Positions 906 through 52,067 of a stretch of 64,000 nucleotides of DNA are shown piece by piece. Source of the DNA: an uncultured Candidatus Saccharibacteria bacterium (GTDB lineage: Bacteria > Patescibacteriota > Minisyncoccia > Phycocordibacterales > UBA9973); NCBI GenBank assembly GCA_964426555.1, contig CAYRQJ010000005.1, forward strand, positions 5,901 to 69,900, given 5' to 3'. Every line of letters begins with the position of its first letter. The first letter of the stretch is position 1. The notes below the pieces were generated by a model, which was not told the origin of the DNA, ran no database searches, and was given only the letters and a program-made list of their open reading frames with translations. Made by a program: the position numbers and the translations under genes.

Positions 906-2567
906 ATGACCCAAGATGACGCATTACAAATCTTAAAAACAGGAGCCAATGTATTCCTAACAGGGGAACCGGGTAGTGGTAAAACTTATACTTTAAACCA
1001 GTATATTGATTATTTAAAAGGGCATGGTGTATGTCCTACTATAACCGCCAGTACTGGTATAGCTGCAACGCATGTTAGTGGAATAACAATTCATTCTTTT
1101 CTTGGTCTAGGTAGTAGAAAGGAATTTTCAGTTTACGATATTGAAGCCATTGCCACAACTGAACGAATTGTAAAAAAAGTTAGTAAAGCCAAAGTTCTAA
1201 TAATTGATGAAATTTCAATGCTTTCTGGCTCTACACTAAATGCAATAGACCAAATCTTAAAATCAATTCATGGTAATAATGATGCATTTGGGGGGATTCA
1301 AGTTGTATTAGTAGGAGATTTTTTTCAACTACCACCAATAACAAATTTTAACGAAGAAGTAAATTTTGCATTTCAAAGTTCTTCTTTTCGAAATGCTAAT
1401 TTTGTTACTTGTTATTTAGAAGAACAGCATCGGCAGTCTTCAGGAGAATTGCTAGATATTTTATCTGCTATTCGGGAAAATAATATTAAAGATATTCATA
1501 GAAAAATCTTAAACAATAAAATAAAAGATAAATTAGTAATAAATGATGATACAAAATTATTTACACACAATAAAAATGTTGATGCTATTAATTTAGTTGA
1601 ACTAAAAAAAATATCTGGCAAAACTCATACTTTTAAAATGACAAATAAAGGTAAAGATAGTTTAGTTGATGCTCTAATTCGGGGGTGTCTCTCACCTGAA
1701 ATTCTAGATTTAAAAATTGGAGCCAGAGTAATGTGTACTAAAAATAATACTCAGCGCGGTTTTGTAAATGGAACAATTGGAACCGTGGTTTCTTTTGGTT
1801 ATGGTAATGATTATCCTATTATCCAAACCAAAAACGGTGAAGAAATTTTAATAGAACCAATGACTTGGCAAATTGAAGAAGATGGTAAAGTAAAAGCAGA
1901 AATTACTCAGGTTCCGCTAAGACTGGCTTGGGCGATAACTGTACATAAATCTCAAGGTATGAGTTTAGACAGCGCTAGTATTGATTTAACTAATGCATTT
2001 GAATATGGACAGGGTTATGTGGCATTGTCTCGTGTTAAAAACATTAATGGTTTAAATTTGCTTGGTTTGGGAGACAAGTCATTGCTTGTTCATCCTGATG
2101 TACTAAATATAGACGAATATTTTAAAAATGAAAGTTTGAAAACTGAATCATATTTAATAACTGTCCCAGTAGCTGATTTACAGGTTTTATTTGATAAATT
2201 TATTATTTATATTGGTGGGTCACTAAAGAATACTGGTATTGTAGAAAAAAATCGTGATACTTATACTAAAACTTTAGAATTAATAAAAAATAATTCTAAT
2301 TTAGAAGAAATAATAAGAGAAAGAGATTTAAAACTGGGAACAATAATAGACCATATACATGTTTTGTATGAAAAAGGGGATATTACAATGCATGAAATTG
2401 TTAACATTGTGCCAGTCAAATTAATGAATGATTTAAAGAAAGTCTATAAAGCGTTTGATGAGTGTGGTACAGAAAAATTGTCTCCAGTTTTTGAGTTTTT
2501 AAATAAAAAGATTAGTTACGATGATTTAAAATTATTAAGAGTTCTTTATAATGCTTCATATAAATAA
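906..2567 (+). CDS. PIF1/RecD-family ATP-dependent DNA helicase with C-terminal HTH-like extension
   Basis: Walker A motif GEPGSGKT. Helicase motifs LIIDEISML, VLVGDFFQLPP and ITVHKSQGMSLD. Confidence 0.8.
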   Translation: MTQDDALQILKTGANVFLTGEPGSGKTYTLNQYIDYLKGHGVCPTITASTGIAATHVSGITIHSFLGLGSRKEFSVYDIEAIATTERIVKKVSKAKVLIIDEISMLSGSTLNAIDQILKSIHGNNDAFGGIQVVLVGDFFQLPPITNFNEEVNFAFQSSSFRNANFVTCYLEEQHRQSSGELLDILSAIRENNIKDIHRKILNNKIKDKLVINDDTKLFTHNKNVDAINLVELKKISGKTHTFKMTNKGKDSLVDALIRGCLSPEILDLKIGARVMCTKNNTQRGFVNGTIGTVVSFGYGNDYPIIQTKNGEEILIEPMTWQIEEDGKVKAEITQVPLRLAWAITVHKSQGMSLDSASIDLTNAFEYGQGYVALSRVKNINGLNLLGLGDKSLLVHPDVLNIDEYFKNESLKTESYLITVPVADLQVLFDKFIIYIGGSLKNTGIVEKNRDTYTKTLELIKNNSNLEEIIRERDLKLGTIIDHIHVLYEKGDITMHEIVNIVPVKLMNDLKKVYKAFDECGTEKLSPVFEFLNKKISYDDLKLLRVLYNASYK

Positions 2568-8683: not shown

Positions 8684-9013
8684 ATGGTTAACTTAAAAGA
8701 ACTTCAGCACGAAGTAATGCGCAACAAATTAGAAAAAGGATTTAATACTACAGATGTAGCTTTGGAATTTTGTCGTGCACATGAAGAATTGTCCGAAGCT
8801 TTTTCAAAATACAATAAAAATCAAGATGGTGTAGCAGAAGAATTTGCAGATGTTATGATTTTTATTTTAGGGATGTGTGAAACTTTGGGTTATGATTTAG
8901 AAACTGAATTAGTTAAAAAAATTGAGACAAACAAAAATCGTAAATATATAAAATCAAAATCTCCCGATGGTAAAGATGTTTTTATAAGAGTTAAGACTGA
9001 TATAGACCCGTAA
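8684..9013 (+). CDS. MazG-like all-alpha nucleoside-triphosphate pyrophosphohydrolase (single domain, 109 aa)
   Basis: EEFADVMIFIL matches the EExx(E/D) metal-binding motif of the MazG/dCTPase fold. Confidence 0.65.
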   Translation: MVNLKELQHEVMRNKLEKGFNTTDVALEFCRAHEELSEAFSKYNKNQDGVAEEFADVMIFILGMCETLGYDLETELVKKIETNKNRKYIKSKSPDGKDVFIRVKTDIDP

Positions 9014-9017
9014 ATAA

Positions 9018-9040
9018 AATCCCCTAAATAGGGGATTTTA
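9018..9040. terminator. Bidirectional terminator (ATCCCCT-AAAT-AGGGGAT) shared by convergent mazG-like and thyA-like genes
   Basis: Stem at 9019-9036 with flanking A-run and T-run. Confidence 0.7.
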
Positions 9041-9874
9041 TTATAGTGCAATTGTCAGTCCTTCTATTTGGGGCAATGGATTGTATTGGGTCAGTAGTGG
9101 GTCCAGTATTTCGTTTATTAAATTCTCATCTAATTTTTCTGCTCTGTCGTATGTATTATCCGGTAATGTTATAAATATATTTTTATGATCGTTTATTCGT
9201 GAAATTATTTCATTTGCACCAGTGTAATGGTTATCATATATGTGTGCATTAGATACAGAGTGAGTGTATATTCCAGGTTTTACATTTAATTTTTGAGCTA
9301 AAATACATTGTAATAAACAAAATCCAAATGTATCAAAAGGACACCCAAGCATCATGTCGTTTGATCTTATAATATTATGTAAATGTAATCGTCCACCAAT
9401 AATATTTACTGTAAAAGTATATGGGCAGGGTACATTTTTTTTAGGGATACCTCCGTGACCATCTTCTCGTGGGTCCCAAGTAACAATTACACCATGCCGA
9501 GAACTGGGTTCGTTTTGTAATAATTTTACAAGTTCACCTAATTGATCTCGTTCAAATGCATGACGCCAACGGTAACCATATGCTGCAGCCAGTGTACCAT
9601 CCTCTTCTAAAAAAGCGTCCCACATTTTAGTATATTTTCTTAAAAATGTTGTATCTTTAACACCGGATATAAACCAAAGCATTTCAGCTATTGCTGACTT
9701 AAATGGATTTTTTCGAAGTGTAAGAATAGGGAATCCATCATTTTCGATATCTATTTGAAATGTTAACCCTGGTAGAGCTTTTGTTTTTTTACCAGTTCTA
9801 ACATTTAATTCTTCGATACCATTTTCCATGATATTTTTTAGTAAGCCTTGGTATATAAGGTCAAAATTAGTCAT
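9041..9874 (-). CDS. Thymidylate-synthase (ThyA) family enzyme carrying Asp at the Asn177 specificity position; predicted deoxycytidylate C5-methyl/hydroxymethyl-transferase rather than canonical dUMP-dependent TS
   Basis: Aligns along its whole length with ThyA (FPILTLRK...LWFISG, AYGYRWR, catalytic Cys in VPCPY, RSNDMMLGCPFDTFGF vs E. coli RSCDVFLGLPFNIASY). The residue after the conserved PF is Asp, not Asn. A leaderless-type promoter (TATAAT, 6 nt, ATG) lies on the minus strand at 9881-9886. Confidence 0.8.
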   Translation of the reverse strand: MTNFDLIYQGLLKNIMENGIEELNVRTGKKTKALPGLTFQIDIENDGFPILTLRKNPFKSAIAEMLWFISGVKDTTFLRKYTKMWDAFLEEDGTLAAAYGYRWRHAFERDQLGELVKLLQNEPSSRHGVIVTWDPREDGHGGIPKKNVPCPYTFTVNIIGGRLHLHNIIRSNDMMLGCPFDTFGFCLLQCILAQKLNVKPGIYTHSVSNAHIYDNHYTGANEIISRINDHKNIFITLPDNTYDRAEKLDENLINEILDPLLTQYNPLPQIEGLTIAL

Positions 9875-9930
9875 ATTGTGATTATACCAAAGCTGTGTAT
9901 AATGAGCAAAATAATGATAATATAAATAAT

Positions 9931-10416
9931 ATGAGAAAAAGTGATTATCTTCCAGATGGTAGAATTATTAAATATGTGGCTAATGATAATGAATTTATAC
10001 TAGCTGCTAAAACATATGCCAAACAATATTCATTAGACAAGGTTATGCCAACAGGGGCCGTATTGGTTAAAAACGGTACTATAATTGGTATGGGAGCAAA
10101 TGGTAGTGATTACCACGAAAAAAATGGTTGTGAAAGGGTTCGCCAAAATATACCTAGTGGAGAAGGGTATGAATTATGTAATGGTTGTAACCCTAATAAT
10201 CATGCAGAACCAAAAGCTATTGAAAATGCAAAGCAAATTGGGAATGATCCCATAGATTCTGATTTGTATTTGTGGGGACATTTTTGGTGTTGTGAGCCAT
10301 GTTGGAATTCTATGATTAAGAATGGAATTAAAGATGTATTTTTAATGCAAGATAGTAAAATTCTTTTTGATAAAGATGAACCTCGTAATATTGTAGGTAA
10401 ACAATTCACTATTTAA
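9931..10416 (+). CDS. dCMP deaminase (ComEB/DCTD-type, with extra Zn-site insert)
   Basis: HAEPKAIENA (H-x-E) and CCEPC (PC-x-x-C) motifs plus the Cys-rich insert typical of dCMP deaminases. The ORF track starts at GTG 9895; the ATG at 9931 is preferred. Confidence 0.8.
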   Translation: MRKSDYLPDGRIIKYVANDNEFILAAKTYAKQYSLDKVMPTGAVLVKNGTIIGMGANGSDYHEKNGCERVRQNIPSGEGYELCNGCNPNNHAEPKAIENAKQIGNDPIDSDLYLWGHFWCCEPCWNSMIKNGIKDVFLMQDSKILFDKDEPRNIVGKQFTI

Positions 10417-10462
10417 GTTAAGATATAAATTTTTACTATAGGTCAAAAACCTATAGTATTTT

Positions 10463-10969
10463 TTATTTCTTATAAACTACAAAATCAAATTCAAATTCGT
10501 GGTCAGTATCTTTTTCATGGTGAATACGAGATGTTTCTTTAAAAATATTTTTATCAAATTCTGGAAAGAATGTGTCAGCATAAGGGAAAGCACCATTAAC
10601 TTCTGTAAGATAAATTGTATCTACAAAAGGAAGTCCCTGGCGATAAACTTCACCTCCGCCAATTATAAAAATTTCATTATTGTATTCACTATTGTTTCTT
10701 AAAAAATCCTCGGCTTTTTCTATAGCATCAGTGATATTTTTTGCAGTTATAACACTGTCTTGTTGCCAGTCGTCCTGACTAGTTATGACTATAGATTTAC
10801 GACGGGGTAGTGGGCGACCAATGGATTCGTATGTTTTTCTACCCATTATCATTACGGTATTGTTTGTTTTCTCTTTAAAATAAGCAAAGTCTTTTGGTAA
10901 ATGCCACAGTAATGACCCGGATTTTCCCAGTTCACGGTTTTGGCCAATAGCAGCAATTAATGAAATCAT
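10463..10969 (-). CDS. folA: Dihydrofolate reductase
   Basis: MISLIAAIGQNRELG...LPW-like N-terminus, MGRKTYESIG and FIIGGGEVY motifs. Confidence 0.85.
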   Translation of the reverse strand: MISLIAAIGQNRELGKSGSLLWHLPKDFAYFKEKTNNTVMIMGRKTYESIGRPLPRRKSIVITSQDDWQQDSVITAKNITDAIEKAEDFLRNNSEYNNEIFIIGGGEVYRQGLPFVDTIYLTEVNGAFPYADTFFPEFDKNIFKETSRIHHEKDTDHEFEFDFVVYKK

Positions 10970-11064
10970 AGGTCTATTTTACCCTTTATTCTAATAAATT
11001 CAAACTTCTTTTTATTTTGCCCGCAAATGCTATAATGGCTGTATTAATATAATCTTTGCTTTTT

Positions 11065-12285
11065 ATGATAGACAAACAAGTAGAAAAACTAATATTAGCT
11101 GAAGACAAACGCCAAAAGAGCGTAATGAACTTAATCGCATCAGAGAACTATGTAAGCAAAGACGTATTAGATGCATTGGGTAGTAATTTGCAAAACAAAT
11201 ATGCCGAAGGTTATCCTGGACGCAGATATTATGGGGGTAATGAAATTATCGACCAAGTAGAAAATCTTTGTATTGAACGAGCCTTAAAACTTTTTAAACT
11301 GGATAGTAAAAAATGGCATATGAATGTGCAAGCATTGTCTGGTTCACCAGCAAACTTTGCATTGTATTGCGCATTGGTTCCACCAGAATTTGGTAAAGAC
11401 GGAAAACCAACAAAAAAAATAATGGGTATGAAGCTAACCAGTGGTGGACATCTTACACATGGGCACCCATTATCTATGACTGGTAAATTGTGGAAGCCAG
11501 TTCAATATTCATTGGATACAAAAACTGAAGTAATAAATTATAAAGAATTGGAAAAGTTGGCAATGGCAGAAAAGCCCGACATTATCGTAGCTGGGTTTAC
11601 TGCATATCCGCGCGTTGTGGACTTTAAAAAGTTTCGTCAAATTGCTAACAAATGTGGAGCGTTGCTACATGTTGATATGTCACACTTTGCAGGGTTAGTT
11701 GCTGGGGAACAATACCCATCGCCATTTCCATATGCTGACAGTGTAATGACTACTACTCACAAATCTTTGCGTGGTCCACGTCATGCATTAATGTTTGTAA
11801 AACGTGACAAGAGAGAGTTAGATAAAAAGCTGGATAAGACTGTAATCCCAGGGCTATACGGTGGCCCGCATGAAAATACTATTGCAGCAGTAGCAGTGAC
11901 AATGAAAGAAGCCAACACACCAGCCTTTAAAAGTTACGCAAAGCAAGTTATAAAAAATGCGCAAGCGCTAGCTAATGAACTACAAAAATTAGGCTGGCAT
12001 ATTATTTCTGGTGGGACTGATTCACATTTGATATTAATGGATACTTGGATGGAAGGAAAAGTAAATCCGCTGGGAGCCGGATCTGTACCAGGTTCAGTTG
12101 CTAGTAAAAAATTGGAACTTGCAGGAATAATAGTAAACATGAATACTATTCCTGGCGAAACTCGCAGTGCAATGGACCCGTCTGGAATTCGTTTAGGTAC
12201 ATGCGCGGAAACTACTCGTGGTAAAAAGGAAAAAGATATGGTAGCTATTGCCAAAAAGATAGACAAAGTTTTAAGAAGCAAATAA
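11065..12285 (+). CDS. glyA: Serine hydroxymethyltransferase
   Basis: PLP-lysine region TTTHKSLRGPR and SGSPANFA motif. The ORF-track TTG start at 11056 is replaced by the in-frame ATG. Confidence 0.9.
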   Translation: MIDKQVEKLILAEDKRQKSVMNLIASENYVSKDVLDALGSNLQNKYAEGYPGRRYYGGNEIIDQVENLCIERALKLFKLDSKKWHMNVQALSGSPANFALYCALVPPEFGKDGKPTKKIMGMKLTSGGHLTHGHPLSMTGKLWKPVQYSLDTKTEVINYKELEKLAMAEKPDIIVAGFTAYPRVVDFKKFRQIANKCGALLHVDMSHFAGLVAGEQYPSPFPYADSVMTTTHKSLRGPRHALMFVKRDKRELDKKLDKTVIPGLYGGPHENTIAAVAVTMKEANTPAFKSYAKQVIKNAQALANELQKLGWHIISGGTDSHLILMDTWMEGKVNPLGAGSVPGSVASKKLELAGIIVNMNTIPGETRSAMDPSGIRLGTCAETTRGKKEKDMVAIAKKIDKVLRSK

Positions 12286-12288
12286 TTC

Positions 12289-12552
12289 ATGGAAGTCAAA
12301 GATAAAAATATTTGGTTTAAGAGAAAATCTTATGGATGGGGCTGGACACCAGTTTCTTGGCAGGGATGGGTGGTGTTATTTATATATGTATTATTAATGA
12401 TTAGTTTTTCGTATATTAATCACACCGAGCTTCCAGACGGTAATTTGTTTGTTGGTTTTGTTTTTCCTTTTGTAATTTTTACATCAATTTTAATATTGAT
12501 TTGTTATAAAAAAGGGGAATCTCCAATATGGCAATGGGGCAAAGATAAATAA
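12289..12552 (+). CDS. Hypothetical small membrane protein
   Basis: Trp-rich N-terminus and two TM helices. Confidence 0.35.
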   Translation: MEVKDKNIWFKRKSYGWGWTPVSWQGWVVLFIYVLLMISFSYINHTELPDGNLFVGFVFPFVIFTSILILICYKKGESPIWQWGKDK

Positions 12553-25901: not shown

Positions 25902-28436
25902 ATGTCGATCTTTATAACCCATCGTGACGGTACAAAAGAAGAGTTTAATGCTGACCACATTAACCGTTCTATTGAAAAAGCCGCAGCTAACCTTACTGAC
26001 ATCACTGCAAAAGTGATGCAAATTGCTTCAGAAACACAGCTCACATTGTATGATGGTATAACAACCGACGAACTTGATATTGCAACTATAAATGCAGCAC
26101 TTCAAAATGCTCAAGAAGATTTAGAATTCGACAAAATTGCTACACGACTACTTTTAAAAGTAATTTATAAAAGAGTATTAGGTGCATACCCAGAAGAAGA
26201 ATTAGATAACGCACACAAAAATGGTTTCAAAGAATTTATTTCAAAAGGTATTGAAATTAATGTTCTAAACAAAAATTTGGGAGAACTTTTTGATCTAGAT
26301 GCTCTTTCCAATGCACTGGATTTATCTCGTGATGAACTATATTCTTATTCTGGAATTTCTTCAATGCAAAATCGCTACCTTACAAAAGGAACCGATGGTC
26401 ATGCAATTGAAACACCACAATATTTTTGGATGCGTGTAGCTATGGCAATGTCTACAAACGAAGTAGACCGTAATGCTTGGGCAATAAAGTTTTATGAAAA
26501 AATGTCAAAACTTGAGTATCTTTCAGCAGGATCAACTAACATTGGTGCAGGTACAAACAAATCCAGTTTGTCTAACTGTTACTTAATGGAAATGCACGAC
26601 GACATGGCACATATTGGTAAAACAATATCTGACGTCTTACTGCTTTCTAAAGCAACAGGTGGTATTGGTCTTTCTGTAACAAAGCTTCGCGCAGAAGGCA
26701 GTATGCTCTCATCTACAAATACAGCATCCAGTGGTCCAATTCCATTTTTACATACTATTGATTCTGCAATTCGTGCAGTACAACGTGGTGGTAAAAAATT
26801 AGGAGCATTATGTTTCTATATGGAAAACTGGCATCTTAATTTTCAAGATTTTCTAGATCTAAAACAAAATGCAGGAGATGACTATCGTCGTGCGCGTACA
26901 GCAAATACTGCTGTGTTTATATCAGACGAATTTATGCGCCGAGTTAGTGCTGGAGAAGACTGGTATCTTTTTGACCCTAATGAAGTAAAAGATTTAAATG
27001 AGCTTTATGGAGATGCCTTTACAAAAAGATATACTGAATATTGCCAAATGGCTGAAAATGGACAAATTAAAATTTGGTCAAAATTACCAGCATCACAACA
27101 ATATAAAAATATTATTGTAATGCTAGAAACTACTTCACACCCATGGCTTACTTGGAAAGATACTATTAATGCCAGAGCATTAAATAATAATACTGGTACA
27201 ATTCACTGTTCTAATTTGTGTACAGAAGTAACATTACCTACTGACCGGGACAATATTGCTGTATGTAATCTTATTTCAATTAACTTGGCAAAACACATTA
27301 ATGGTACTGAAATAAACTGGCCACTACTTGAAGAATCTACTCGTCTTTCAATTCGCCAGTTAGATAATCTTATTGATGTGAATGTTCCACCAATTCCAGA
27401 AGCTAAAAAAGCTGATAAAGAAAATCGTGCAGTTGGTCTTGGTCTTATGGGACTAACCGACACAATTGAAAAGTTGGGAATGTCTTATGAAGATAGTGAT
27501 GCCGCAGAATTAACTGATAAAGTTTTTGAATTTATATCATATTGTGCAATTGATGAGTCTGCTAACTTAGCGGAAGAGCGTGGAAGTTATGGAAATTTCC
27601 CTGGATCAGGCTGGAGTAAAGGTATGGTTCCAATTGATACACTAGCAGTACTAGAATACGAGCGTGGAGAAGAATTAACTGTTTCAAAAGTTTCTTCTTA
27701 TGTTAACCCAATAGTTGATTGGGATAAGTTACGAGCAAAAGTAAAAAATGGAGTTCGTAATGCTACAGTAATGGCAATTGCACCAAATGCAAACATTGGT
27801 CTTGTGGCAGGAACCAGCCCGGGTATTGACCCAAGATTTGCGCAAATGTTTTCAAGAAATAAAATCTCAGGAAAATATTTAGAAGTTAATCCAAACTTGG
27901 TTCATGATTTAAAGAAAGAAGGACTATGGGAAAAAGTTCGTGGTGCAATACTTGAAAACCATGGTGACATTTCAGAAATTGACAGTATTCCAGAAAAAAT
28001 AAAACATATTTACAAAACTTCTTTTTCAATCTCACCATATGCATTTATTGAAATTGCAGCTCGTGCTCAAAAATGGGTAGATCAAGCAATCTCTCGTAAT
28101 ATGTATCTAGAAACTAGAGACATTGAAGAAGTTACAAATGTATATATGCAAGCTTGGAAGAAAGGTCTTAAGACTACGTATTATCTACATATGAAACCTC
28201 GTCATAGCGCTGAACAAAGTACAACCAGTGTAAATAAATCTCAAACTATGGGTAAAGTTGGATTTGCATCATTAAGAATGAAAGCAATTCCTGTAGCTAA
28301 TATTGAAACTATTGATCCTGTTATTTCTTCAGCTGAAACAGATGTAGTAATTCCAGCACATAACGAAGAACCAAAAATAAAAGTTCATGTCGTAAACGAT
28401 CCTCAAGATGCTCTTCTTTGTGAAGGTTGTCAATAA
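25902..28436 (+). CDS. nrdA: Ribonucleoside-diphosphate reductase alpha subunit (class I, with ATP-cone)
   Basis: N-terminal ATP-cone, catalytic NLCTEV region, C-terminal CEGCQ. Confidence 0.9.
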   Translation: MSIFITHRDGTKEEFNADHINRSIEKAAANLTDITAKVMQIASETQLTLYDGITTDELDIATINAALQNAQEDLEFDKIATRLLLKVIYKRVLGAYPEEELDNAHKNGFKEFISKGIEINVLNKNLGELFDLDALSNALDLSRDELYSYSGISSMQNRYLTKGTDGHAIETPQYFWMRVAMAMSTNEVDRNAWAIKFYEKMSKLEYLSAGSTNIGAGTNKSSLSNCYLMEMHDDMAHIGKTISDVLLLSKATGGIGLSVTKLRAEGSMLSSTNTASSGPIPFLHTIDSAIRAVQRGGKKLGALCFYMENWHLNFQDFLDLKQNAGDDYRRARTANTAVFISDEFMRRVSAGEDWYLFDPNEVKDLNELYGDAFTKRYTEYCQMAENGQIKIWSKLPASQQYKNIIVMLETTSHPWLTWKDTINARALNNNTGTIHCSNLCTEVTLPTDRDNIAVCNLISINLAKHINGTEINWPLLEESTRLSIRQLDNLIDVNVPPIPEAKKADKENRAVGLGLMGLTDTIEKLGMSYEDSDAAELTDKVFEFISYCAIDESANLAEERGSYGNFPGSGWSKGMVPIDTLAVLEYERGEELTVSKVSSYVNPIVDWDKLRAKVKNGVRNATVMAIAPNANIGLVAGTSPGIDPRFAQMFSRNKISGKYLEVNPNLVHDLKKEGLWEKVRGAILENHGDISEIDSIPEKIKHIYKTSFSISPYAFIEIAARAQKWVDQAISRNMYLETRDIEEVTNVYMQAWKKGLKTTYYLHMKPRHSAEQSTTSVNKSQTMGKVGFASLRMKAIPVANIETIDPVISSAETDVVIPAHNEEPKIKVHVVNDPQDALLCEGCQ

Positions 28437-28460
28437 TTATAAATTAACTAAATATCATAT

Positions 28461-29477
28461 ATGTTATTAGGAAAACCAGCACCAGCAGACACAACACTTC
28501 ACCCAATGCATTACAAATGGGCTTATGATTTATATCAGCAAGCTGTTCGTAATACTTGGTTCCCACACGAAATTGCATTAGGTGAAGATTTGGCGGATTG
28601 GAAAAAAATGACCGACGATGAAAAGCATGCACTGTCTTTTCTTATGGCATTTTTTAACCCAGCCGAACTAATTGTTAATCGTTCACTTGCACTAGGAGTG
28701 TATCCTTATGTAAAAGCTCCAGAAGCTCATCTATATTTAGCAAAACAAATGTGGGAAGAAGCAAACCACTGTGTAGCTTTTGAATATGTACTGGAAACTT
28801 TTCCACTAGACCGTGAAGAAGTATACAAAGTCCATTTAAATACTGAAAGTATGATCGCTAAAGAAGCTTTCATTGAAAAATATTTAACTCGCATGACAGA
28901 AATGAGTATAGATATTGAAACAATTGAAGGTAAAAAAGATTTTATTAGAAATCTTGTAGCTACAAATATCGTAATGGAAGGTGTATGGTTTTACACTGGG
29001 TTTATGGTGGCGCTTTCTTTCCGACAAAGAAACTTGCTTCGTAACTTGGGTTCAATGATCAACTGGGTTGTTCGTGATGAATCTCTACATCTTAAATTTG
29101 GAATTGGTTTAATCATGCAAGGTCTTGAAGAAAACCCAGAAATGTTAACCGAAGAATTTGCAGACGAAATTAGAAACATTGTTATAGAAGGAGTAGACTT
29201 AGAATGTAATTACAATAAAGATTTATTCCCTCATGGAATTCTTGGATTAAACGCTGACTATGTTAACCAATATGTTCAATATATTGCAGACCGAAGATTG
29301 GAAGAGCTGGGACTACCAGCCCATTACAATGTTACAAATCCTGCAAAATGGATGAGTACAGCAAATGATGTGTTTGAACTAGTAAATTTCTTTGAATCTC
29401 AAAATACAAACTACGAAGTTGATGCTGGTGGCCACAGTAATACAAAAAAAGAAGAAGATAAAGAAGAAAGTAAATAA
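28461..29477 (+). CDS. nrdB: Ribonucleoside-diphosphate reductase beta subunit
   Basis: Di-iron ligands EEANHCVAFEYVLE and RDESLH, plus tyrosyl-radical region. Confidence 0.9.
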   Translation: MLLGKPAPADTTLHPMHYKWAYDLYQQAVRNTWFPHEIALGEDLADWKKMTDDEKHALSFLMAFFNPAELIVNRSLALGVYPYVKAPEAHLYLAKQMWEEANHCVAFEYVLETFPLDREEVYKVHLNTESMIAKEAFIEKYLTRMTEMSIDIETIEGKKDFIRNLVATNIVMEGVWFYTGFMVALSFRQRNLLRNLGSMINWVVRDESLHLKFGIGLIMQGLEENPEMLTEEFADEIRNIVIEGVDLECNYNKDLFPHGILGLNADYVNQYVQYIADRRLEELGLPAHYNVTNPAKWMSTANDVFELVNFFESQNTNYEVDAGGHSNTKKEEDKEESK

Positions 29478-30287: not shown

Positions 30288-30992
30288 ATGGCAAAAAAAA
30301 CCAAAGGTAAATTTATTGTTATTGATGGTACTGATGGGTCAGGTAAAGCAACTCAGGTAGAATTTTTATTAAAGAGACTTAAAAAAGAAGGCTACAATAT
30401 AAAAACTGTAGATTTTCCAGAATATTACAAAAACTTTTTTGGTGAATTTATTGGGCATTGTTTAGCGGAGCAATATTATAATTGGGTCAAAGTTCACCCA
30501 AAAATTGCATCTGTAATTTACGCAGCAGACAGATGGGAATCCAGCCAGCAAATAAAAGATTGGTTAGATAAAGGATATGTTGTGGTTGCAAATCGTTATG
30601 TTTCTTCAAACCAAATTCACCAAGGTGGTAAAATAACCGATCCTAAAAAAAGAAAAGATTTTTTAAAATGGTTAGACACAATGGAATACGAAGTTTTTAA
30701 AATTCCGCGTCCTGATATTGTATTTTATCTAGAAGTACCAATAAAAGTAACTCAAAAATTAATGGTTGAAAGAGACCAAAAACATGCTCGTCAATATTTA
30801 AAAAAGAAAGGGGATGTTCATGAGAATGATCCAGTATTTCTAGAAAATTCTCGTAAGTCAGCATTGAAATTAATCAAAGAACTAAATAATTTTATAAAAA
30901 TTTCTTGTGTTCGCGGTATGAATATGCGCACCCGTGAAGATATTCACGAAGATGTGTACACCGAAGTAAAAAAAGTAATTACTAAAAAATAA
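30288..30992 (+). CDS. tmk: Thymidylate kinase family (dTMP/dNMP kinase)
   Basis: P-loop IDGTDGSGKAT and DRY-like NRY motif. Confidence 0.7.
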   Translation: MAKKTKGKFIVIDGTDGSGKATQVEFLLKRLKKEGYNIKTVDFPEYYKNFFGEFIGHCLAEQYYNWVKVHPKIASVIYAADRWESSQQIKDWLDKGYVVVANRYVSSNQIHQGGKITDPKKRKDFLKWLDTMEYEVFKIPRPDIVFYLEVPIKVTQKLMVERDQKHARQYLKKKGDVHENDPVFLENSRKSALKLIKELNNFIKISCVRGMNMRTREDIHEDVYTEVKKVITKK

Positions 30993-31016: not shown

Positions 31017-31535
31017 CTACATTACCAAGTTATAAATAAATTTTACTATTGGGTCTATGTCTGGGCCGTAGACTATTGCAGCGCCCAGTGCACCAGTGAT
31101 GGTTACTGCGATGAAGCCAAATATTATAGACAATATTATAATAAATCTATTGTTTAAAATATAGTTTGCAATTTTTTGTTTTAAAATCCAAATTTTATTT
31201 ATTATACTTTCAGGTTTGAAATTAAATACATTATTTACTGAAAGAATTTTTATTAAATACAGTACTGCAATTACTCCAAATACTGCATTTGTAGTTCCAG
31301 CCCAAAAACTGTGTGTTTCGATTAGATTATGTAGATCAGGAAAATTGTCTTCAATTGCTTCACCAGAGCTTGCCGCAAGTAGGCCGCCGATAAATCCGGC
31401 AATTACTAAAATTGCTTTTGTATTTAATAGCCAAATTTTATCTGATAATTTTTTTTTACTAATTAATTCTAAAAAAGAATACAAAACTAAAAATGCAATA
31501 GGGAAATGTACTAAAAGTGGGTGTATATTTGTCAT
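31017..31535 (-). CDS. Hypothetical membrane protein (DUF2231-like HPxxVHFPIA N-terminus)
   Basis: 172-aa ORF with 4-5 TM helices. Confidence 0.45.
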   Translation of the reverse strand: MTNIHPLLVHFPIAFLVLYSFLELISKKKLSDKIWLLNTKAILVIAGFIGGLLAASSGEAIEDNFPDLHNLIETHSFWAGTTNAVFGVIAVLYLIKILSVNNVFNFKPESIINKIWILKQKIANYILNNRFIIILSIIFGFIAVTITGALGAAIVYGPDIDPIVKFIYNLVM

Positions 31536-31574
31536 GCTTTAATTTTACTCTTGTTTAATATAGAATACAAATAC

Positions 31575-31997
31575 ATGCAAATAAAAGTTAAAAAACTAAA
31601 AGAAAATGCAAAACTGCCAACTTATGCTCATCCAGGCGATGTAGGAATGGACATGTATGCTATGGAAACAGTTACTATACCGCCAATGGGCCAGCATCGT
31701 TTTTTCCACGGATTTGCTTTAGAATTTCCAATTGGTTATGGAGCTTTTGTTATGGACAAAAGCAGTATTTCTAAAGCCGGCCTGCAAACTATGGGTGGAG
31801 TCTTTGATGCTGGATATCGTGGTGAATATAATACGCATTTAATTAATCTTTCAAGTGAATCTTATACCGTAGAAATTGGTGACAAAGTAGGGCAACTTGT
31901 TATTGTTCCAGTTAATATTGCTGAGCTTGAAGTAGTAGAAGAATTAACTGATAGTTCTCGTGGAATGGGAGCATTTGGTAGTACTGGTAAAAAATAA
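31575..31997 (+). CDS. dut: dUTP diphosphatase (trimeric dUTPase)
   Basis: Motif 3 GVFDAGYRGE and motif 5 RGMGAFGSTG. The ORF-track start at 31521 overlaps the upstream gene. Confidence 0.85.
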   Translation: MQIKVKKLKENAKLPTYAHPGDVGMDMYAMETVTIPPMGQHRFFHGFALEFPIGYGAFVMDKSSISKAGLQTMGGVFDAGYRGEYNTHLINLSSESYTVEIGDKVGQLVIVPVNIAELEVVEELTDSSRGMGAFGSTGKK

Positions 31998-32489: not shown

Positions 32490-35400
32490 ATGGAAGAAGA
32501 AAAAAAGATAAAAACAAATAACGAACACGAATTGGACGTAATAGAATTTTGGAAGAAAAACCAAATTTTTGAAAAGTCTTTAGAGAAAGATTCACCAAAT
32601 GGAGAATTTGTGTTTTATGATGGCCCTCCTACAGCTAACGGTCGTCCGGGAATTCACCATCTTGAAGCTCGAGCTTTTAAAGATGCAATTCCACGATATA
32701 AAACTATGCAAGGATACCACGTTCGTCGTAAAGGTGGATGGGACACACATGGACTACCTGTAGAACTTCAAGTTGAAAAAGCATTAGGTTTAACAAACAA
32801 AAAACAAATCGAAGAATACGGAATTGCTAAGTTTAATCAAGAATGTAAACAAAGTGTTTGGACTTATATTGATGAATGGGAAAAATTTACTGACCGTATT
32901 GGTTATTGGGTAGACCATAAAAATCCGTACGTTACATATCATAATAGCTATATTGAATCTCTGTGGGATGTAGTAAAAGAAATAAATAAAAAAGATATAT
33001 TATATAAAGATGATCGTATTGTGCCATGGTGTTCACGTTGTGGAACTGCACTGTCTTCTCACGAATTAGCCCAAGGTTATAAAGACGTAAAAGATCTTTC
33101 AGTTACCGCTAAATTTAAAGTAGTAGGGGTTGATAATACTTTTATACTGGCTTGGACTACAACACCTTGGACACTGCCGGGGAATGTTGCACTGGCAGTA
33201 AACGAAAAATTAACTTACGTAAAAATACAAGCAGGGGAAGAGCGATTTATTTTAGGTAAAGATAGGCTGTCTATTATTCAGGGTGAATTTAATATAATCG
33301 AAGAATTTACAGGAGATAAATTAATTGGTTTAGAATACGAGCCTTTGTATTCTTATTTTGCTGAACAATTTAAAGTTCAACAAAAATTAAATCCAACTAC
33401 TAACATGGGTGATATAGAAAAAGCATACCGCGTTTATGCTGCTGACTTTGTAACTGCAAATGATGGTACAGGTATTGTACATACTGCTGTAATGTATGGT
33501 CAAGATGACTTTGTATTGGGTACAAAACTAGGTTTGCCAAAATATCATTTAGTAAATTTAGATGGGACATTTAAAGATGGAATGGATTTTTTGTCTAACA
33601 GATTAGTAAAATCTATAGCAGAAAATGGCGAAGATACTGTTGCCATAGATATAATTAAAGATTTAGCACACAAAGGTCTTTTATTTAAAAAAGAAAAATA
33701 CGAACACAGTTATCCGCATTGTTGGCGCTGCCAAACACCACTTATATATTACGCTCGAGATTCTTGGTATATCCGTATGAGTGATTTACGTGAAGATTTA
33801 ATAATGAATAACAATTTTATTAACTGGGAACCAAAACACGTTTCTCAGGGTAGATTTGGTGAATGGATTAGTGAAGTAAAAGATTGGGCAATATCTCGCG
33901 AAAGATATTGGGGGACACCACTACCAATTTGGGAAGATACAAATGGAGTTCGTCATATTTTTACTAATAAAGCAGAATTAATAAAAAGTTCTAAAAATTC
34001 TGGTAATAATTATACAATGATTCGTCATGGTGAAGCACAAAGTAATTTAACTAAAACTTGTAGTTTTGCTAATGGAAATATTATTGATTTAACAGAGACA
34101 GGGGTAGAACAAATAAAGACTGCAGCCAGTGAATTAAAAGATAAAAAATTTGATTTAATTTATACTTCACCATTTCTTCGGACTCGTCATACTGCAGAAA
34201 TTATTGCAGATCAGCTGGGTATTCCACATGTAAATATTATTACAGATGATCGATTAGTAGATTTGAATACTGGAATTTTTGAAGGCAAAACTTGGCCAGA
34301 ATATTTTGATTTCTTTTCTGATAAAGATCGCTACAATGTTCCATCTCCTGGTGGAGAAAGTGTTCTAGATGTTAAAAGAAGAATTGGAGATTTTGTTTAT
34401 GAAATTGAAAAAAATACAAACGGTAAAAATATTTTAATTGTAGCTCATGGGATTAGTCTTTGGATGCTTGAATGTGTAGCAAAGGGGGCAGATATTCCAG
34501 GAATGAAAAAAATTCGTGAAGATTTAAATCATGATATTCACCAAGATTCACTTCCAAATGGTGCACATAAAGAATTAAATTTTGTACCAATGCCACATAA
34601 CCTTGATTATGAATATGACCTGCATCGTCCTTTTATTGATGAATTTCCAGTATTTAACGAAGCTGGAGAAAAGCTTACAAGAGTCAGCGAAGTAATGGAT
34701 GTCTGGTTTGACTCTGGGGCTATGCCATACGCACAAGATGGTTATCCAAATTTAACTGATAATATTCATTTCCCAGCAGATTATATTTGTGAAGGTATGG
34801 ACCAAACTCGTGGATGGTTTTATACTCTGCACGCTGTTTCGGCGTTACTTGGGCGTGGTCCAGCTTATAAAAATGTAATATGTCTGGGGCTTATTTTAGA
34901 TAAAGAAGGTCAAAAAATGAGTAAATCTCGTGGCAATGTTACATCACCTTGGGAGATGTGTGAAAAATACGGAGCAGATGCATTACGTTTTTGGATGTAT
35001 TCAGTAAATCAACCAGGAGACAGTAAAAATTTTGATGAAAAAACAGTTGATGAGGTTGTAAAAAAAGTTTTTAATCTTATCCGTAATGTTTATGCATTTT
35101 ATGATTTATACCGAAATCGAGATAGTGAGAAAACTTATGAAGAAAATACATTATCTAAAAACGTATTAGATAAATGGATATTAGCAAAGTTAAGTAATTT
35201 AATTACAAACACTACAAATTCATTGGATGCTTATTCATTGCTTAACCCCACTCGCGACATAAGAAGTTTTATTGATGATTTGTCTACTTGGTATTTGAGA
35301 CGCAGTCGTGACCGTATGCGTGAACTTGACCCACAGGCACTGCAAACAATTTATATTGTTTTAAAAAATTTAGCGAAATTAATTGCACCTTTTGCTCCAT

Positions 35401-35966
35401 TTATTGCAGAAGAATTATGGCTTGATTTAAAAAATGAAAAAGATGAACAAAGCGTTCATCTATCAAATTGGCCCAAATCCATAAACATTCCAGAAAACGA
35501 AATGTTATTAGAATCAATGGAGATGGTTCGTGATTTATGTACAGGGGGTCATGCTTTGCGTAAGTCAGTAAATATTCCTGTACGGCAGCCACTACTTTCA
35601 TTTACTATCGATAAAGAAATAGATGAAGAATTGCAAGATTTAATTCGTGAAGAATTAAACGTAAGAAATATTGTAATTTCAAATAAAATAGCATTAAATA
35701 CTGAAATTACAGATGAACTAAAAGACGAAGGTAATTTTAGAGAATTTGTTCGTTTTCTTCAGGATAATCGAAAATCTCAAGGGCTTAACGCTGGGCAAGT
35801 TGTTGATATAAAAATAAAATCAAATCATGATGCTTTTGAATTTATAAATCGTTGGCAAGAACAAATTAAAAAAGAGGTTTCTATTAATGAAATAATCACA
35901 GATAATTCTTTGAATAGTGAAATATTAAAAATAGAAAACATGGAATTTGCTATAATGTTCGTATGA
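32490..35966 (+). CDS. ileS: Isoleucyl-tRNA synthetase with a nested histidine-phosphatase (phosphoglycerate-mutase-like) domain
   Basis: IleRS CP1 motif TTPWTLPGN and KMSKS. An insert at ~34017-34545 carries RHGEAQSN, SPFLRTRHTAE and ILIVAHGIS (branch-1 histidine phosphatase motifs), placed between the PIW and DLHRPFID segments. Confidence 0.9.
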   Translation: MEEEKKIKTNNEHELDVIEFWKKNQIFEKSLEKDSPNGEFVFYDGPPTANGRPGIHHLEARAFKDAIPRYKTMQGYHVRRKGGWDTHGLPVELQVEKALGLTNKKQIEEYGIAKFNQECKQSVWTYIDEWEKFTDRIGYWVDHKNPYVTYHNSYIESLWDVVKEINKKDILYKDDRIVPWCSRCGTALSSHELAQGYKDVKDLSVTAKFKVVGVDNTFILAWTTTPWTLPGNVALAVNEKLTYVKIQAGEERFILGKDRLSIIQGEFNIIEEFTGDKLIGLEYEPLYSYFAEQFKVQQKLNPTTNMGDIEKAYRVYAADFVTANDGTGIVHTAVMYGQDDFVLGTKLGLPKYHLVNLDGTFKDGMDFLSNRLVKSIAENGEDTVAIDIIKDLAHKGLLFKKEKYEHSYPHCWRCQTPLIYYARDSWYIRMSDLREDLIMNNNFINWEPKHVSQGRFGEWISEVKDWAISRERYWGTPLPIWEDTNGVRHIFTNKAELIKSSKNSGNNYTMIRHGEAQSNLTKTCSFANGNIIDLTETGVEQIKTAASELKDKKFDLIYTSPFLRTRHTAEIIADQLGIPHVNIITDDRLVDLNTGIFEGKTWPEYFDFFSDKDRYNVPSPGGESVLDVKRRIGDFVYEIEKNTNGKNILIVAHGISLWMLECVAKGADIPGMKKIREDLNHDIHQDSLPNGAHKELNFVPMPHNLDYEYDLHRPFIDEFPVFNEAGEKLTRVSEVMDVWFDSGAMPYAQDGYPNLTDNIHFPADYICEGMDQTRGWFYTLHAVSALLGRGPAYKNVICLGLILDKEGQKMSKSRGNVTSPWEMCEKYGADALRFWMYSVNQPGDSKNFDEKTVDEVVKKVFNLIRNVYAFYDLYRNRDSEKTYEENTLSKNVLDKWILAKLSNLITNTTNSLDAYSLLNPTRDIRSFIDDLSTWYLRRSRDRMRELDPQALQTIYIVLKNLAKLIAPFAPFIAEELWLDLKNEKDEQSVHLSNWPKSINIPENEMLLESMEMVRDLCTGGHALRKSVNIPVRQPLLSFTIDKEIDEELQDLIREELNVRNIVISNKIALNTEITDELKDEGNFREFVRFLQDNRKSQGLNAGQVVDIKIKSNHDAFEFINRWQEQIKKEVSINEIITDNSLNSEILKIENMEFAIMFV

Positions 35967-49974: not shown

Positions 49975-50034
49975 AAAAGCCTCAGAAATGGGGCTTTTGT
50001 TGTGTTTGACTTTCTTTAAAATTTGTTTTATAAT
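49975..50034 (+). promoter_or_regulatory. Terminator hairpin followed by sigma70-like promoter (TTGACT, 17 nt, TATAAT) for dgkA-like gene
   Basis: AAGCC...GGCTT hairpin + T-run. TTGACT at 50006-50011 and TATAAT at 50029-50034. The block GTGTTTGACTTT is shared with 23246. Confidence 0.5.
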
Positions 50035-50053
50035 ATGTAAAATTATTTAAAAT

Positions 50054-50401: not shown

Positions 50402-50417
50402 AAATTATTTTTTTAAA

Positions 50418-50446
50418 GAAACCCGGAATGATTTCGGGTTTTTATT
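50418..50446 (+). terminator. Intrinsic terminator (AACCCG-GAATGATTT-CGGGTT + T-run)
   Basis: Stem followed by TTTTATTTT. Confidence 0.7.
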
Positions 50447-50464
50447 TTGTGCTATAGTTAGATT

Positions 50465-51169: not shown

Positions 51170-51173
51170 AAAT

Positions 51174-51196: not shown

Positions 51197-51220
51197 TCGA
51201 AAAAGGGAAGTAGTATATAC

Positions 51221-52063: not shown

Positions 52064-52067
52064 CGTT

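Follow-up and report, generated by a model that had tools for sequence, protein, structure and literature searches.

The dCMP methylase of phage Xp12 belongs to the thymidylate synthase family. This Xp12 homolog makes 5mdC in vivo, the deaminases adjoining such homologs are 5mC-selective and have been proposed as suppliers of dT, and in phages the deamination of a 5-methyl-dC nucleotide to a dT nucleotide has already been described (bioRxiv 10.1101/2024.12.05.627091). The only phage deaminase studied in detail, mSCD-B5, uses the triphosphate, 5mdCTP, and not 5mdCMP. Xp12, PaMx28, Mallos and RcSimone-Hastad each combine a PRA-PH-type pyrophosphatase, an Asp-type synthase, a dCMP-deaminase-family gene and dihydrofolate reductase (DHFR). 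Phage contigs that modify cytosine are best told apart by positions 177 and 147 (E. coli ThyA numbering, used throughout for the synthase) (PMC8670742). At position 177, in the pyrimidine-recognition site, the engineered change of Asn to Asp (N229D in L. casei, N177D in E. coli) gives dCMP methylases that methylate reductively and release dihydrofolate (DHF) (Liu & Santi 1992; Hardy & Nalivaika 1992; both as cited in PMC8670742 and PMC13326640). T4 gp42 also has Asp at the specificity position, with Thr and Ser replacing His147 and Asp205, and receives dCMP from the gp56 dCTPase. Its product is hydroxymethylated without release of DHF, and hydroxymethylases have Asp or Glu at position 143 (PMC13326640).

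We analysed a 64,000-nucleotide window from an uncultured Candidatus Saccharibacteria bacterium, a member of the ultra-small Patescibacteria (candidate phyla radiation, CPR). A preliminary description had reported five neighbouring genes, all of which were found where it placed them, and Pfam matches bore out its mention of dut and nrdAB elsewhere in the window (Table 1).

Table 1. Features of the window discussed in the text
Feature	Position	Strand	Support
MazG-like all-alpha NTP pyrophosphatase, 109 aa	8684-9013	+	PF12643, 29.3 bits (cut-off 27)
Thymidylate-synthase homolog, 277 aa	9041-9874	-	PF00303, 188.9 bits; AlphaFold
Divergent intergenic region synthase/deaminase, 56 nt	9875-9930	.	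ORF coordinates
dCMP-deaminase-family zinc deaminase, divergent, 161 aa from ATG	9931-10416	+	PF00383, 42.6 bits
FolA-type dihydrofolate reductase (DHFR)	10463-10969	-	PF00186, 178 bits
Serine hydroxymethyltransferase (SHMT)	11056-12285	+	PF00464, 484 bits; NCBIfam PRK00011, 473 bits
NrdA and NrdB, class I ribonucleotide reductase	25902-29477	+	Ribonuc_red_lgC 537 bits, Ribonuc_red_sm 253 bits
Thymidylate kinase Tmk (dTMP to dTDP)	30288-30992	+	PF02223, 78 bits
Canonical trimeric dUTPase Dut	31521-31997	+	PF00692, 82.5 bits

The synthase homolog has the full-length thymidylate synthase fold and retains the catalytic Cys. HMMER alignments without gaps to solved thymidylate synthases, together with MAFFT alignments, put an Asp exactly at Asn177 (RSNDMMLGCPF-D versus RSxDxxLGxPF-N). 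The preliminary description had claimed this Asp as well as the catalytic Cys, and the claim stands, as the alignments reveal neither a one-residue shift of the Asp nor a substitute Asn near site 177. The same alignments gave Pro at His147 (PC-P versus PC-H), also as claimed, and Asn at Asp205 (S-N-AHIY versus G-D-THLY), which had been proposed with less certainty. When the window protein was aligned with those of 80 species-level Patescibacteria genomes (56-86% identity), Asp177, Asn205, Asn143 and Phe83 were present in all 81 sequences and Pro147 in 80. Site 177 is encoded by GAT in 63 sequences and GAC in 18, and site 205 by AAT in 48 and AAC in 33; at both sites a single transition would restore the canonical residue, which none of the 81 has. 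The invariance is not a product of chance: since Asp and Asn are a single transition apart while synonymous codons vary, the site is under selection. Ser167 is retained in this alignment and, following PMC5175136, may point to a deoxyribose substrate.

The nearest relatives of the synthase are all of the Asp type. Among cluster representatives ranked best, to a limit of about E = 1e-39, all have Asp177 (65 sequences; two fragments stop short of the site) and have the Xp12 signature F83, N143, C-P147 and D177 in common. In 197 of 200 neighbour-joining bootstraps a split set the CPR sequences together with four phage enzymes apart from every Asn-type sequence, placing the synthase in one clade with Xp12-type enzymes. 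Of the characterised relatives the Xp12 methylase is the nearest, with 33-41% identity to Xp12-type enzymes (E 1e-46 to 1e-51) compared to 19% to T4 gp42. Among 12 residues listed as lying within 6 Å of C5 (PMC13326640), the CPR synthase agrees with the Xp12 type at 142K, 143N, 147P and 177D, carries an aliphatic residue at 165, like the phage enzymes, and is unlike E. coli ThyA at six. Xp12-type and CPR synthases also share an NVPCP motif and a four-residue insertion before the catalytic Cys. The two pockets are nevertheless not identical, since Arg127 of the phages is His or Gln in CPR and position 205 is Asn instead of His, and a thymidylate-synthase-like hydrophobic C-terminus is present in the CPR enzyme but absent from Xp12.

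Compared to canonical ThyA (EC 2.1.1.45; E. coli, L. casei), the fold is the same, and Cys146, Glu58, Tyr94, Arg21/126/166, Ser167, Asp169, His207, Tyr209, Trp80, the hydrophobic C-terminal tail and linkage to DHFR and SHMT are shared. The AlphaFold model (pLDDT 91; TM about 0.8 to solved thymidylate synthases) has thymidylate synthases proper as its nearest solved folds, and the TIGR03284 score exceeds the cut-off. Identity is only 24-31%, however, and the differences comprise Asn177 to Asp, His147 to Pro, Leu143 to Asn, Asp205 to Asn, Trp83 to Phe, Arg127 to His/Gln and Gln165 to Ile/Val. Unlike the N229D and N177D mutants, the CPR enzyme has a co-evolved second shell (143, 147, 165, 205) conserved family-wide. 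In the absence of an assay we infer its activity from homology to Xp12 and predict a dCMP C5-methyltransferase that would release 5-methyl-dCMP and DHF.

The MazG-like gene is convergent with the synthase gene, as previously described, with a gap of 27 nt, and lies within 2.6 kb of it in 49 of the 80 loci (61-90% identity). Its metal-binding motifs EExxE and EExxD are invariant in 21 orthologs. A PDB profile search returned archaeal MazG, DCTPP1/RS21-C6 (E about 1e-3) and MazZ; similarity to human DCTPP1, mouse RS21-C6 and phage MazZ is weak but significant (E 1e-3 to 7e-3) and the metal-binding pattern is the same, although the CPR protein is much shorter and only distantly similar, and sequence cannot give its substrate. 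We propose, as an inference, that it is a dCTP (or 5-methyl-dCTP) pyrophosphatase yielding the monophosphate. A further 22 loci carry in its place beside the synthase a gene of the dCTP-deaminase (DCD) fold, and the two are mutually exclusive, a direct observation of one pyrophosphatase type displaced by another. Because all 20 DCD-fold sequences examined have Pro where the catalytic Glu should be, we predict a non-deaminating dNTP pyrophosphatase; the dUTPase-like motifs RSS and IDxGYxGxL are retained, and a separate true Dut coexists with this gene.

The deaminase gene adjoins the synthase in 74 of the 80 loci, and the divergent layout, with gene centres ~700 bp apart, is kept in most of these. 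A spacing of ~20 nt had been reported for the window, but the deaminase ATG is 56 nt from the synthase start, and the shorter figure holds only if the possible upstream GTG at 9895 is used. The intergenic region is presumed, without promoter analysis, to be a shared promoter region. Across 34 orthologs the HAE and CxxC zinc motifs do not vary, nor does an additional cluster of Cys residues, and the best PDB relatives by profile are the dCMP deaminases 2hvv and 4p9c (E about 1e-7). While the gene and its divergent orientation were as described, the label "bona fide" dCMP deaminase cannot be kept for a family this divergent, which scores 27.5 bits against the NCBIfam ComEB cut-off of 219. We propose that it converts 5-methyl-dCMP to dTMP, again an inferred substrate.

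Together these genes place the four functions of the Xp12-type module (Xp12, PaMx28/PaMx74, Mallos, RcSimone-Hastad) side by side in CPR loci, where, unlike in the phages, SHMT, Tmk and Dut are integrated as well. DHFR is no more than 8 kb from the synthase in 70 of the 80 loci, and SHMT is present in 30. Searches with tblastn detected Tmk in L091-L093 and in 24 of the 80 loci from the genome scan (ORF clustering estimates 20 loci), and in the relatives L091 and L093 it follows the deaminase or SHMT immediately in the same operon.

We lean, without assays, towards the reading that the "ThyA" of this genome belongs to the Xp12-type dCMP C5-methyltransferase branch of the thymidylate synthase superfamily and anchors a conserved cellular thymidylate pathway that methylates first and deaminates second. 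With an Xp12-type active site in what databases call thymidylate synthase, these cells would probably make thymidine through methylation and then deamination of a cytosine nucleotide. Ribonucleotide reductase would supply dCDP and dCTP, and a dedicated pyrophosphatase, MazG-like here and the deaminase-dead DCD-fold protein in other lineages, would convert dCTP to dCMP. The Asp177 enzyme would then methylate dCMP at C5, transferring and reducing the one-carbon unit from methylene-THF and giving 5-methyl-dCMP and DHF; the adjacent deaminase would form dTMP, and Tmk would phosphorylate this to dTDP. DHFR would recycle DHF and SHMT regenerate 5,10-methylene-THF, with Dut limited to dUTP sanitation. 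The position of Tmk in L091 and L093 points to a route at the monophosphate level. While the residues, clade membership, gene linkage and pyrophosphatase displacement are direct observations, we infer which substrates the three enzymes use, in what order the steps run, and that 5-methyl-dC nucleotides are kept from DNA. The central inference of the preliminary description, cytosine-specific reductive methylation linked to pyrophosphatase, deaminase, DHFR and SHMT, gains support from every test made, namely the relatedness to Xp12, the first-shell residues, the bootstrapped split, the phage module and conservation in 80 species. The chemistry has phage precedent, so the novelty lies in the cellular setting; in the literature searched we found no report of a methylate-first thymidylate route in cellular genomes, and if the proposal is true, cells use a thymidine route demonstrated until now in viruses alone.

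Several observations do not sit easily with this proposal. Dut is clustered with the module in 21-35 of the 80 loci, yet its dUMP would have no consumer; the mSCD-B5 preference for a triphosphate may, by analogy, count against deamination of 5mdCMP; and the CPR deaminase and pyrophosphatases belong to subfamilies other than those of the phages, without detailed homology, so phage specificities cannot be transferred to them. The classical order (dCTP, dCMP, dUMP, dTMP) fits the pyrophosphatase, deaminase, synthase and Tmk equally well, and the swapped order rests only on the synthase residues and clade. An odd synthase may therefore simply methylate dUMP from the deaminase and Dut, its Asp177 being protonated and mimicking Asn, or the enzyme being bispecific. 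The gene set for this, from pyrophosphatase through DHFR, SHMT and Tmk to Dut, is complete; Asn177/229 mutants retain some dUMP activity, and the fold, the TIGR03284 score and the clustering of Dut agree. We consider it unlikely but quite conceivable, given the invariance of Asp177, Asn143 and Asn205 (and of Pro147 in all but one sequence) when a single transition would give the canonical residue, and the nesting of the synthase among Asp-type enzymes whose tested members yield 5mdCMP; the Asn-to-Asp mutation, as cited in PMC8670742, makes a thymidylate synthase a dCMP methylase. It is not excluded that the enzyme still uses some dUMP in the classical order, nor that 5mC enters DNA. In the latter case 5-methyl-dCTP would enter replication as in phages, much or all genomic C would be 5mC, the pyrophosphatase would deplete dCTP and the deaminase would divert part of the pool to dT. 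The four-gene content is that of Xp12 and PaMx74, phages reported with complete replacement of C by 5mC, the pyrophosphatase is the most conserved module member, as expected if dCTP exclusion matters, and the best-studied phage deaminase acts on 5mdCTP; the absence of C5-methyltransferase motifs from about 1 Mb of related loci adds only very weak evidence. Nevertheless, we judge this outcome distinctly improbable: among the conserved neighbours we found Tmk but no dedicated 5-methyl-dCMP kinase, Tmk directly after the deaminase points to a dTMP intermediate, and to our knowledge no cellular organism has a fully substituted base. Sequence carries no information on DNA modification, and the two hypotheses put forward earlier, dTMP via 5-methyl-dCMP or modified dC for DNA, are inseparable at that level.

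Asp177 is common to T4 gp42, MilA and RB69 gp48, and a dCMP (or CMP) hydroxymethylase or 5-hydroxy-dCMP synthase making modified cytosine for DNA or a metabolite was weighed on that ground, but it is very hard to reconcile with the pocket, in which 143 has the Asn of Xp12 rather than Asp/Glu, 169 is Asp and not Asn, and 167 is Ser and not Ala. T4 gp42 is the more distant relative, and the Asp143 that admits water and the short, different C-terminus of gp42 have no counterpart in the thymidylate-synthase-like fold and C-terminus seen here. The earlier argument that DHFR linkage indicates reductive methylation of the thymidylate synthase type is strengthened by the frequency of that linkage and by Asn143, Asp169 and the C-terminus, all of which favour a methyl over a hydroxymethyl product. 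The closest homologs with known function, like the architecture of the module, come from phages, which could also suggest a viral contig, a prophage or an island recently derived from a phage, a reading that we regard as refuted. No close viral relative of the synthase was found in IMG/VR (best 30% identity), the deaminase and pyrophosphatase are remote from phage counterparts, and in the deaminase family (1112 members at E<=1e-5) every named match among the best 120 is from Patescibacteria. The surrounding genes are housekeeping genes, the window encoding EF-G, IleRS, FtsK and ribonucleotide reductase, and related contigs reach 704-729 kb. Unlike its phage relatives, the gene resides in a cellular genome and is apparently inherited vertically across a bacterial class, the synthase cluster occurring in at least 147 Patescibacteria genomes that represent species, across which identity declines gradually from 86% to 56%.

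The five ORFs between positions 8684 and 12285 of the window were recovered as the preliminary description had them, and each has a Pfam match. They are bordered by unrelated genes, upstream by a PilM operon and downstream by genes for DUF1761, MscL and transporters, and the window also encodes EF-G, IleRS, FtsK, a class I ribonucleotide reductase, dUTPase (Dut), thymidylate kinase (Tmk), NusG and ribosomal protein L11. The DNA is cellular, and the names of homologs point to Candidatus Nomurabacteria/Paceibacterota within Patescibacteria (the candidate phyla radiation, CPR).

Features of the gene cluster, of the remaining window and of related loci (L060, a synthase locus; L091 and L093, loci from deaminase-homolog lookups)
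Feature	Sequence	Position	Strand	Remarks
PIF1-like helicase	window	906-2567	+	C-terminal HTH_40 domain
MazG-like protein, 109 aa	window	8684-9013	+	Pfam PF12643, 29.3 bits (cut-off 27)
Thymidylate-synthase homolog, 277 aa	window	9041-9874	-	Pfam PF00303, 188.9 bits
Zinc deaminase	window	9931-10416	+	Pfam PF00383, 42.6 bits; alternative GTG start 9895
FolA-type DHFR	window	10463-10969	-	Pfam, 178 bits
SHMT	window	11056-12285	+	Pfam, 484 bits
ORF opposite deaminase gene	window	10200-10409	-	
ORF opposite DHFR gene	window	10499-10702	+	
ORF opposite SHMT gene	window	11934-12299	-	
IleRS, 1158 aa	window	32490-35966	+	His_Phos_1 domain at residues 510-676
Terminus-like region	window	about 50000-54000		
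FtsK	window	53997-56258		
Protein of 1136 aa	window	57997-61407	+	N-terminal PG_binding_1 domain
DCD-like protein	L091	7960-8613		
HD-domain protein, 422 aa	L091	11219-12487		
DCD-like protein	L093	873-1526		
IleRS	L093	9028-12525		His_Phos_1 domain
ORF of 168 aa	L060	10480-10986		RibD_C-like appearance

Three antisense ORFs (67-121 aa) lie opposite the deaminase, DHFR and SHMT genes, and antisense ORF families are found again in related loci; most likely they do not code for protein and merely shadow the conserved genes.

An AlphaFold model of the synthase (pLDDT 91) superposes over its full length on solved thymidylate synthases (TM 0.76-0.84), including the C-terminal segment with its hydrophobic, thymidylate-synthase-like tail (...GLTIAL). 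The catalytic set is kept (Cys146, Glu58, Tyr94, Arg21/126/166, Ser167, Asp169, His207, Tyr209 and Trp80, in E. coli ThyA numbering). At position 177 (Asn229 in L. casei), where the Asn of ThyA selects uracil and excludes cytosine, the synthase carries Asp. The segment RSNDMMLGCPF-D falls on RSxDxxLGxPF-N without a gap in HMMER alignments to solved thymidylate synthases, MAFFT concurs and there is no Asn anywhere near, so the displacement by one residue that would have refuted the preliminary description is excluded. The Pro (PC-P) and Asn (S-N-AHIY) that it placed at positions 147 and 205 were likewise borne out. The second-shell ThyA residues His147, Leu143, Asp205 and Trp83 are replaced by Pro, Asn, Asn and Phe, respectively, and Arg127 by His. 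Among family models, the synthase exceeds the cut-off of NCBIfam TIGR03284 (121.5 against 108.35) and remains below those of all PRK01827 sub-models (87-148 against 325-427). Foldseek against the PDB was of no use as a test of specificity, returning only canonical thymidylate synthases and confirming no more than the fold, since to our knowledge no structure has been solved for the Xp12 type, the kin of the phage Xp12 dCMP C5-methyltransferase.

A single scan of species-representative genomes gave 147 relatives, the best 80 of which, all from Patescibacteria metagenome-assembled genomes with contigs of up to 704 kb, were analyzed together with the window synthase. In these 81 sequences (56-86% identity) Asp177, Asn205, Asn143 and Phe83 are invariant, so that every one fails the Asn177 test for a canonical ThyA, and Pro147 is found in 80. 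Cys146, Glu58, Tyr94, Arg166, Ser167, Asp169, His207 and Tyr209 are conserved in 80 or 81, the single shortfall being an alignment gap at Glu58. Position 177 is encoded by GAT (63 sequences) and GAC (18) only and Asn205 by AAT (48) and AAC (33); synonymous change has therefore occurred at both sites, yet the canonical residue, a single transition away at each, was never found. Judged by this codon and residue pattern, the synthase family is under selection and is no one-off. A scan of IMG/VR for close viral relatives found none above 30% identity, and a recent viral origin of the synthase was rejected, the best match being only 30% identical. The cluster has long been part of cellular genomes and is no prophage.

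In a HMMER search over 1.8 billion cluster representatives, Asp177 was present in every sequence covering the site among the 65 best-ranked (to about E = 1e-39; 2 are fragments that stop short of it), with the signature F83, [Q/H/R]127, N143, C, P147, x, D177, and canonical W-R-L-C-H-F-N-D sequences ranked only below this block. The best matches among 50,697 phage records were Xp12, Mallos, PaMx28/74, AAT-1, phiH1/H2 and RcSimone-Hastad (32-41% identity, E 1e-45 to 1e-51). Those phage enzymes that we inspected carry NVPCP, PYD and AHAHLY and, like the CPR synthase, have 4 extra residues inserted ahead of the catalytic Cys. A neighbor-joining tree of 149 sequences recovered a split with all CPR sequences and four phage enzymes, and without any sequence bearing Asn at 177, in 197 of 200 bootstraps; monophyly of the CPR set was weak (87/200).

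Positions 177 and 147 are the two that best discriminate modified from unmodified contigs (PMC8670742). Twelve residues lie within 6 Å of C5, and position 143 correlates with a methyl or hydroxymethyl product, being Leu in ThyA and Asp or Glu in hydroxymethylases (PMC13326640). The CPR synthase differs from E. coli ThyA at 6 of these 12 positions and resembles the Xp12 type in Lys142, Asn143, Pro147, an aliphatic residue at 165 (Ile/Val), Asp177 and Phe83, differing from it at 205 (Asn for His), 168 (Asn for Ser) and 127 (His/Gln for Arg). The T4 hydroxymethylase gp42 (19% identity; sequence verified against PDB 1B49) has at 143 an acidic Asp that admits water, where the CPR synthase has its invariant Asn. 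Ribo-specific members have Ser167 replaced by Ala (PMC5175136), and the CMP hydroxymethylase MilA/BcmA has this Ala together with Lys for the partner Arg, whereas the CPR synthase has Ser167 in 81/81 and keeps Arg126; with His/Gln at 127, it is undetermined which Arg corresponds to MilA Lys133. The 5-hydroxy-dCMP synthases RB69 gp48 and DLP3 gp80 have Glu at 143 and, at 169, the Asp-to-Asn change that marks this activity (PMC13326640), in contrast to Asp169 (81/81) and Asn143 in the CPR sequences. Asp177, the first-shell signature with the insertion, the clade placement and the gene neighborhood all agree with an Xp12-type enzyme; conversion of dCMP and methylene-THF to 5-methyl-dCMP and DHF is inferred for the CPR synthase and has been demonstrated for the Xp12 homolog only.

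Within 8 kb of the synthase, the deaminase is found in 74 of the 80 related loci, mostly divergent from the synthase and with gene centers about 700 bp apart, and DHFR in 70. The MazG-like gene, 61-90% identical and better conserved than the synthase, is present in 49, SHMT in 30, Dut in 21-35 and Tmk in 20 (by ORF clustering) to 24 (by tblastn). The flanking genes vary between loci, so what is conserved is the module as such. Loci from two deaminase-homolog lookups have an operon of a dCTP-deaminase-fold (DCD-like) gene, DHFR and synthase, followed divergently by deaminase, (SHMT), Tmk and (Dut); these synthases also have Asp177, and in L093 a canonical Dut is a separate gene of the same cluster.

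DHFR varies among loci in both position and type. The closest relatives (L004, L005, L007 and L031) have a window-like FolA, 73-82% identical, beyond the deaminase, and most other species a FolA only 30-48% identical directly after the synthase; in L060 an ORF stands in place of FolA. The pattern of sequences suggests that DHFR may have been replaced repeatedly. In one lineage (L091) the gene immediately after Tmk in the thymidylate cluster encodes an HD-domain protein, possibly a dNTP triphosphohydrolase or some other nucleotide hydrolase with a part in the pathway.

In the MazG-like protein the EExxE...EExxD metal-binding motifs are invariant, and matches in a PDB profile search support the family; a single-sequence PDB search was less informative, its top matches, to designed helical repeat proteins and EF-hand proteins, being spurious. 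The DCD-like gene (217 aa) occurs in 22 loci (L058-L079), all without a MazG-like gene, and also at L091, L092 and L093. Beside the Asp-type synthase the two are mutually exclusive (22 against 49 loci, none with both, all loci searched). The DCD-like protein is closest to dCTP deaminases (Pfam DCD, 121.7 bits; PDB 4xjc and 2qlp), but in tool alignments of 20/20 orthologs the catalytic Glu of these enzymes (..TLEL..), which we take to be Glu138 of E. coli Dcd, is replaced by Pro (..xxPI..). It retains RSS and IDxGYxGxL motifs that resemble those of dUTPases and is predicted to be a non-deaminating dNTP pyrophosphatase. That two unrelated folds with only the conversion of dNTP to dNMP and PPi in common alternate at one place suggests that the pathway includes a dedicated pyrophosphatase; from context and mutual exclusion we infer that it is, in the simplest case, either a dCTPase that provides dCMP or an enzyme acting on 5-methyl-dCTP. 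T4 (gp56) and Xp12-like phages are arranged likewise.

The deaminase had been called a bona fide dCMP deaminase. Its zinc-binding HAE and CxxC motifs (PF00383) and its best solved relatives, which are dCMP deaminases, sustain the family, but not an equivalog, given a ComEB score (NCBIfam) of 27.5 bits against a cut-off of 219. At E<=1e-5 the family comprises 1112 proteins; the best 120 are saturated with close Patescibacteria members, and all named matches among them are Patescibacteria. BLASTP found no significant similarity to the Xp12 and PaMx28 deaminases, nor did the CPR deaminase and MazG-like protein show meaningful similarity to Xp12/PaMx28 proteins or any phage record, so their specificity cannot be transferred by homology.

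In the proposed pathway, a MazG-like or DCD-like pyrophosphatase would convert dCTP to dCMP, the Asp177 enzyme would form 5-methyl-dCMP and DHF, the deaminase would yield dTMP and Tmk dTDP, with methylene-THF regenerated by DHFR and SHMT. All substrate assignments are inferences. A methyl rather than hydroxymethyl product is supported by Asn143 as in Xp12, the thymidylate-synthase-like C-terminus and the tight linkage to DHFR, an argument already made in the preliminary description. Deamination at the monophosphate level is suggested by the position of Tmk directly after the deaminase or SHMT. The route itself, raised earlier as a hypothesis, has a precedent in phages, in published work on Xp12-type enzymes and in a gene order that we confirmed in four phages: Xp12, PaMx28, Mallos and RcSimone-Hastad each have a PRA-PH-domain protein, an Asp-type synthase, a PF00383 deaminase and DHFR. 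The Xp12 homolog and 5 of 7 metagenomic homologs make 5mdC in an E. coli assay. In 70% of viral contigs with modified cytosine, such homologs have a dCMP-deaminase-family gene beside them; PRA-PH pyrophosphatases co-localize with these genes, and many of the deaminases are 5mC-selective. The role proposed for the deaminases is to draw dT from the pool of 5-methyl-dC, and enzymes of this kind are under development for methylome sequencing (bioRxiv 10.1101/2024.12.05.627091).

The CPR genes are also compatible with the classical order from dCTP through dCMP and dUMP to dTMP, against which stand only the active site and clade of the synthase. Clustering with Dut is mildly awkward for methylation before deamination, as dUMP would then have no consumer. 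Neither the window nor 0.96 Mb of related loci, which together cover only a little of each genome, contains a real ORF with the ThyX motif RHRxxS, and no intact Asn-type synthase copy was noticed in the related loci, an incidental observation without a dedicated search and on a small genome fraction. A methylate-first pathway could also feed DNA, as the preliminary description had considered: Paceibacteria-class Patescibacteria might both use 5-methyl-dCMP as a thymidylate intermediate and incorporate 5-methyl-dCTP genome-wide, with the pyrophosphatase removing dCTP. We consider this improbable, and there is no sequence evidence on the DNA; a slim chance of 5mC in DNA remains because the module is identical to that of fully 5mC-substituted phages. 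A C5-DNA-methyltransferase motif scan of about 1 Mb of related loci found none and is uninformative on genomic 5mC. If true, these would be the first cellular organisms in whose DNA another base stands, largely or wholly, in place of a canonical one, as it does in phage Xp12, with protection from host or phage nucleases in epibiotic life as a plausible benefit. With the module identified, the existence of any cell with bulk 5mC-substituted DNA becomes a directly testable question.

The chemistry and the module are already known from phages; we found no earlier report of the module as a thymidylate cluster that is apparently core and vertically inherited throughout a bacterial class. The finding ties cellular housekeeping to the toolkit with which phages modify their DNA, and prompts one to ask which of the two is older. 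No report of a cellular dCMP-methylase route, or of Patescibacteria with thymidylate synthase and dCMP, was found in the literature, most subscription journals being outside coverage; one paper on Patescibacteria assigns thyA to dTMP synthesis of the ordinary kind. Should the inference be right, an essential precursor of DNA is made throughout a large bacterial radiation from dCMP through 5-methyl-dCMP, bypassing dUMP, a cellular route that textbooks do not list. Automated annotation systematically names the key enzyme ThyA, a mislabel on this reading, since public names (NCBI PGAP, JGI) for the Asp177 proteins (that of the window and P0001-P0120) read "thymidylate synthase" and TIGR03284 is passed. 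Revision would be needed for CPR metabolic reconstructions, for what is assumed about sensitivity to antifolates or 5-FdUMP and for models of how dUTP and dUMP are handled, and the group would be a source of hundreds of diverse natural dCMP methylases and of candidate 5mC-nucleotide deaminases and pyrophosphatases.

Elsewhere in the window, cumulative GC skew has its maximum near 52 kb, where genes switch from the plus strand before to the minus strand after; with FtsK nearby, this region looks like a replication terminus. The histidine-phosphatase domain of IleRS lies within the class I catalytic domain, an architecture identical in the relative L093. A PIF1-like helicase ends in an HTH_40 domain, and the peptidoglycan-binding domain of the 1136-aa protein is the only one recognizable in it.
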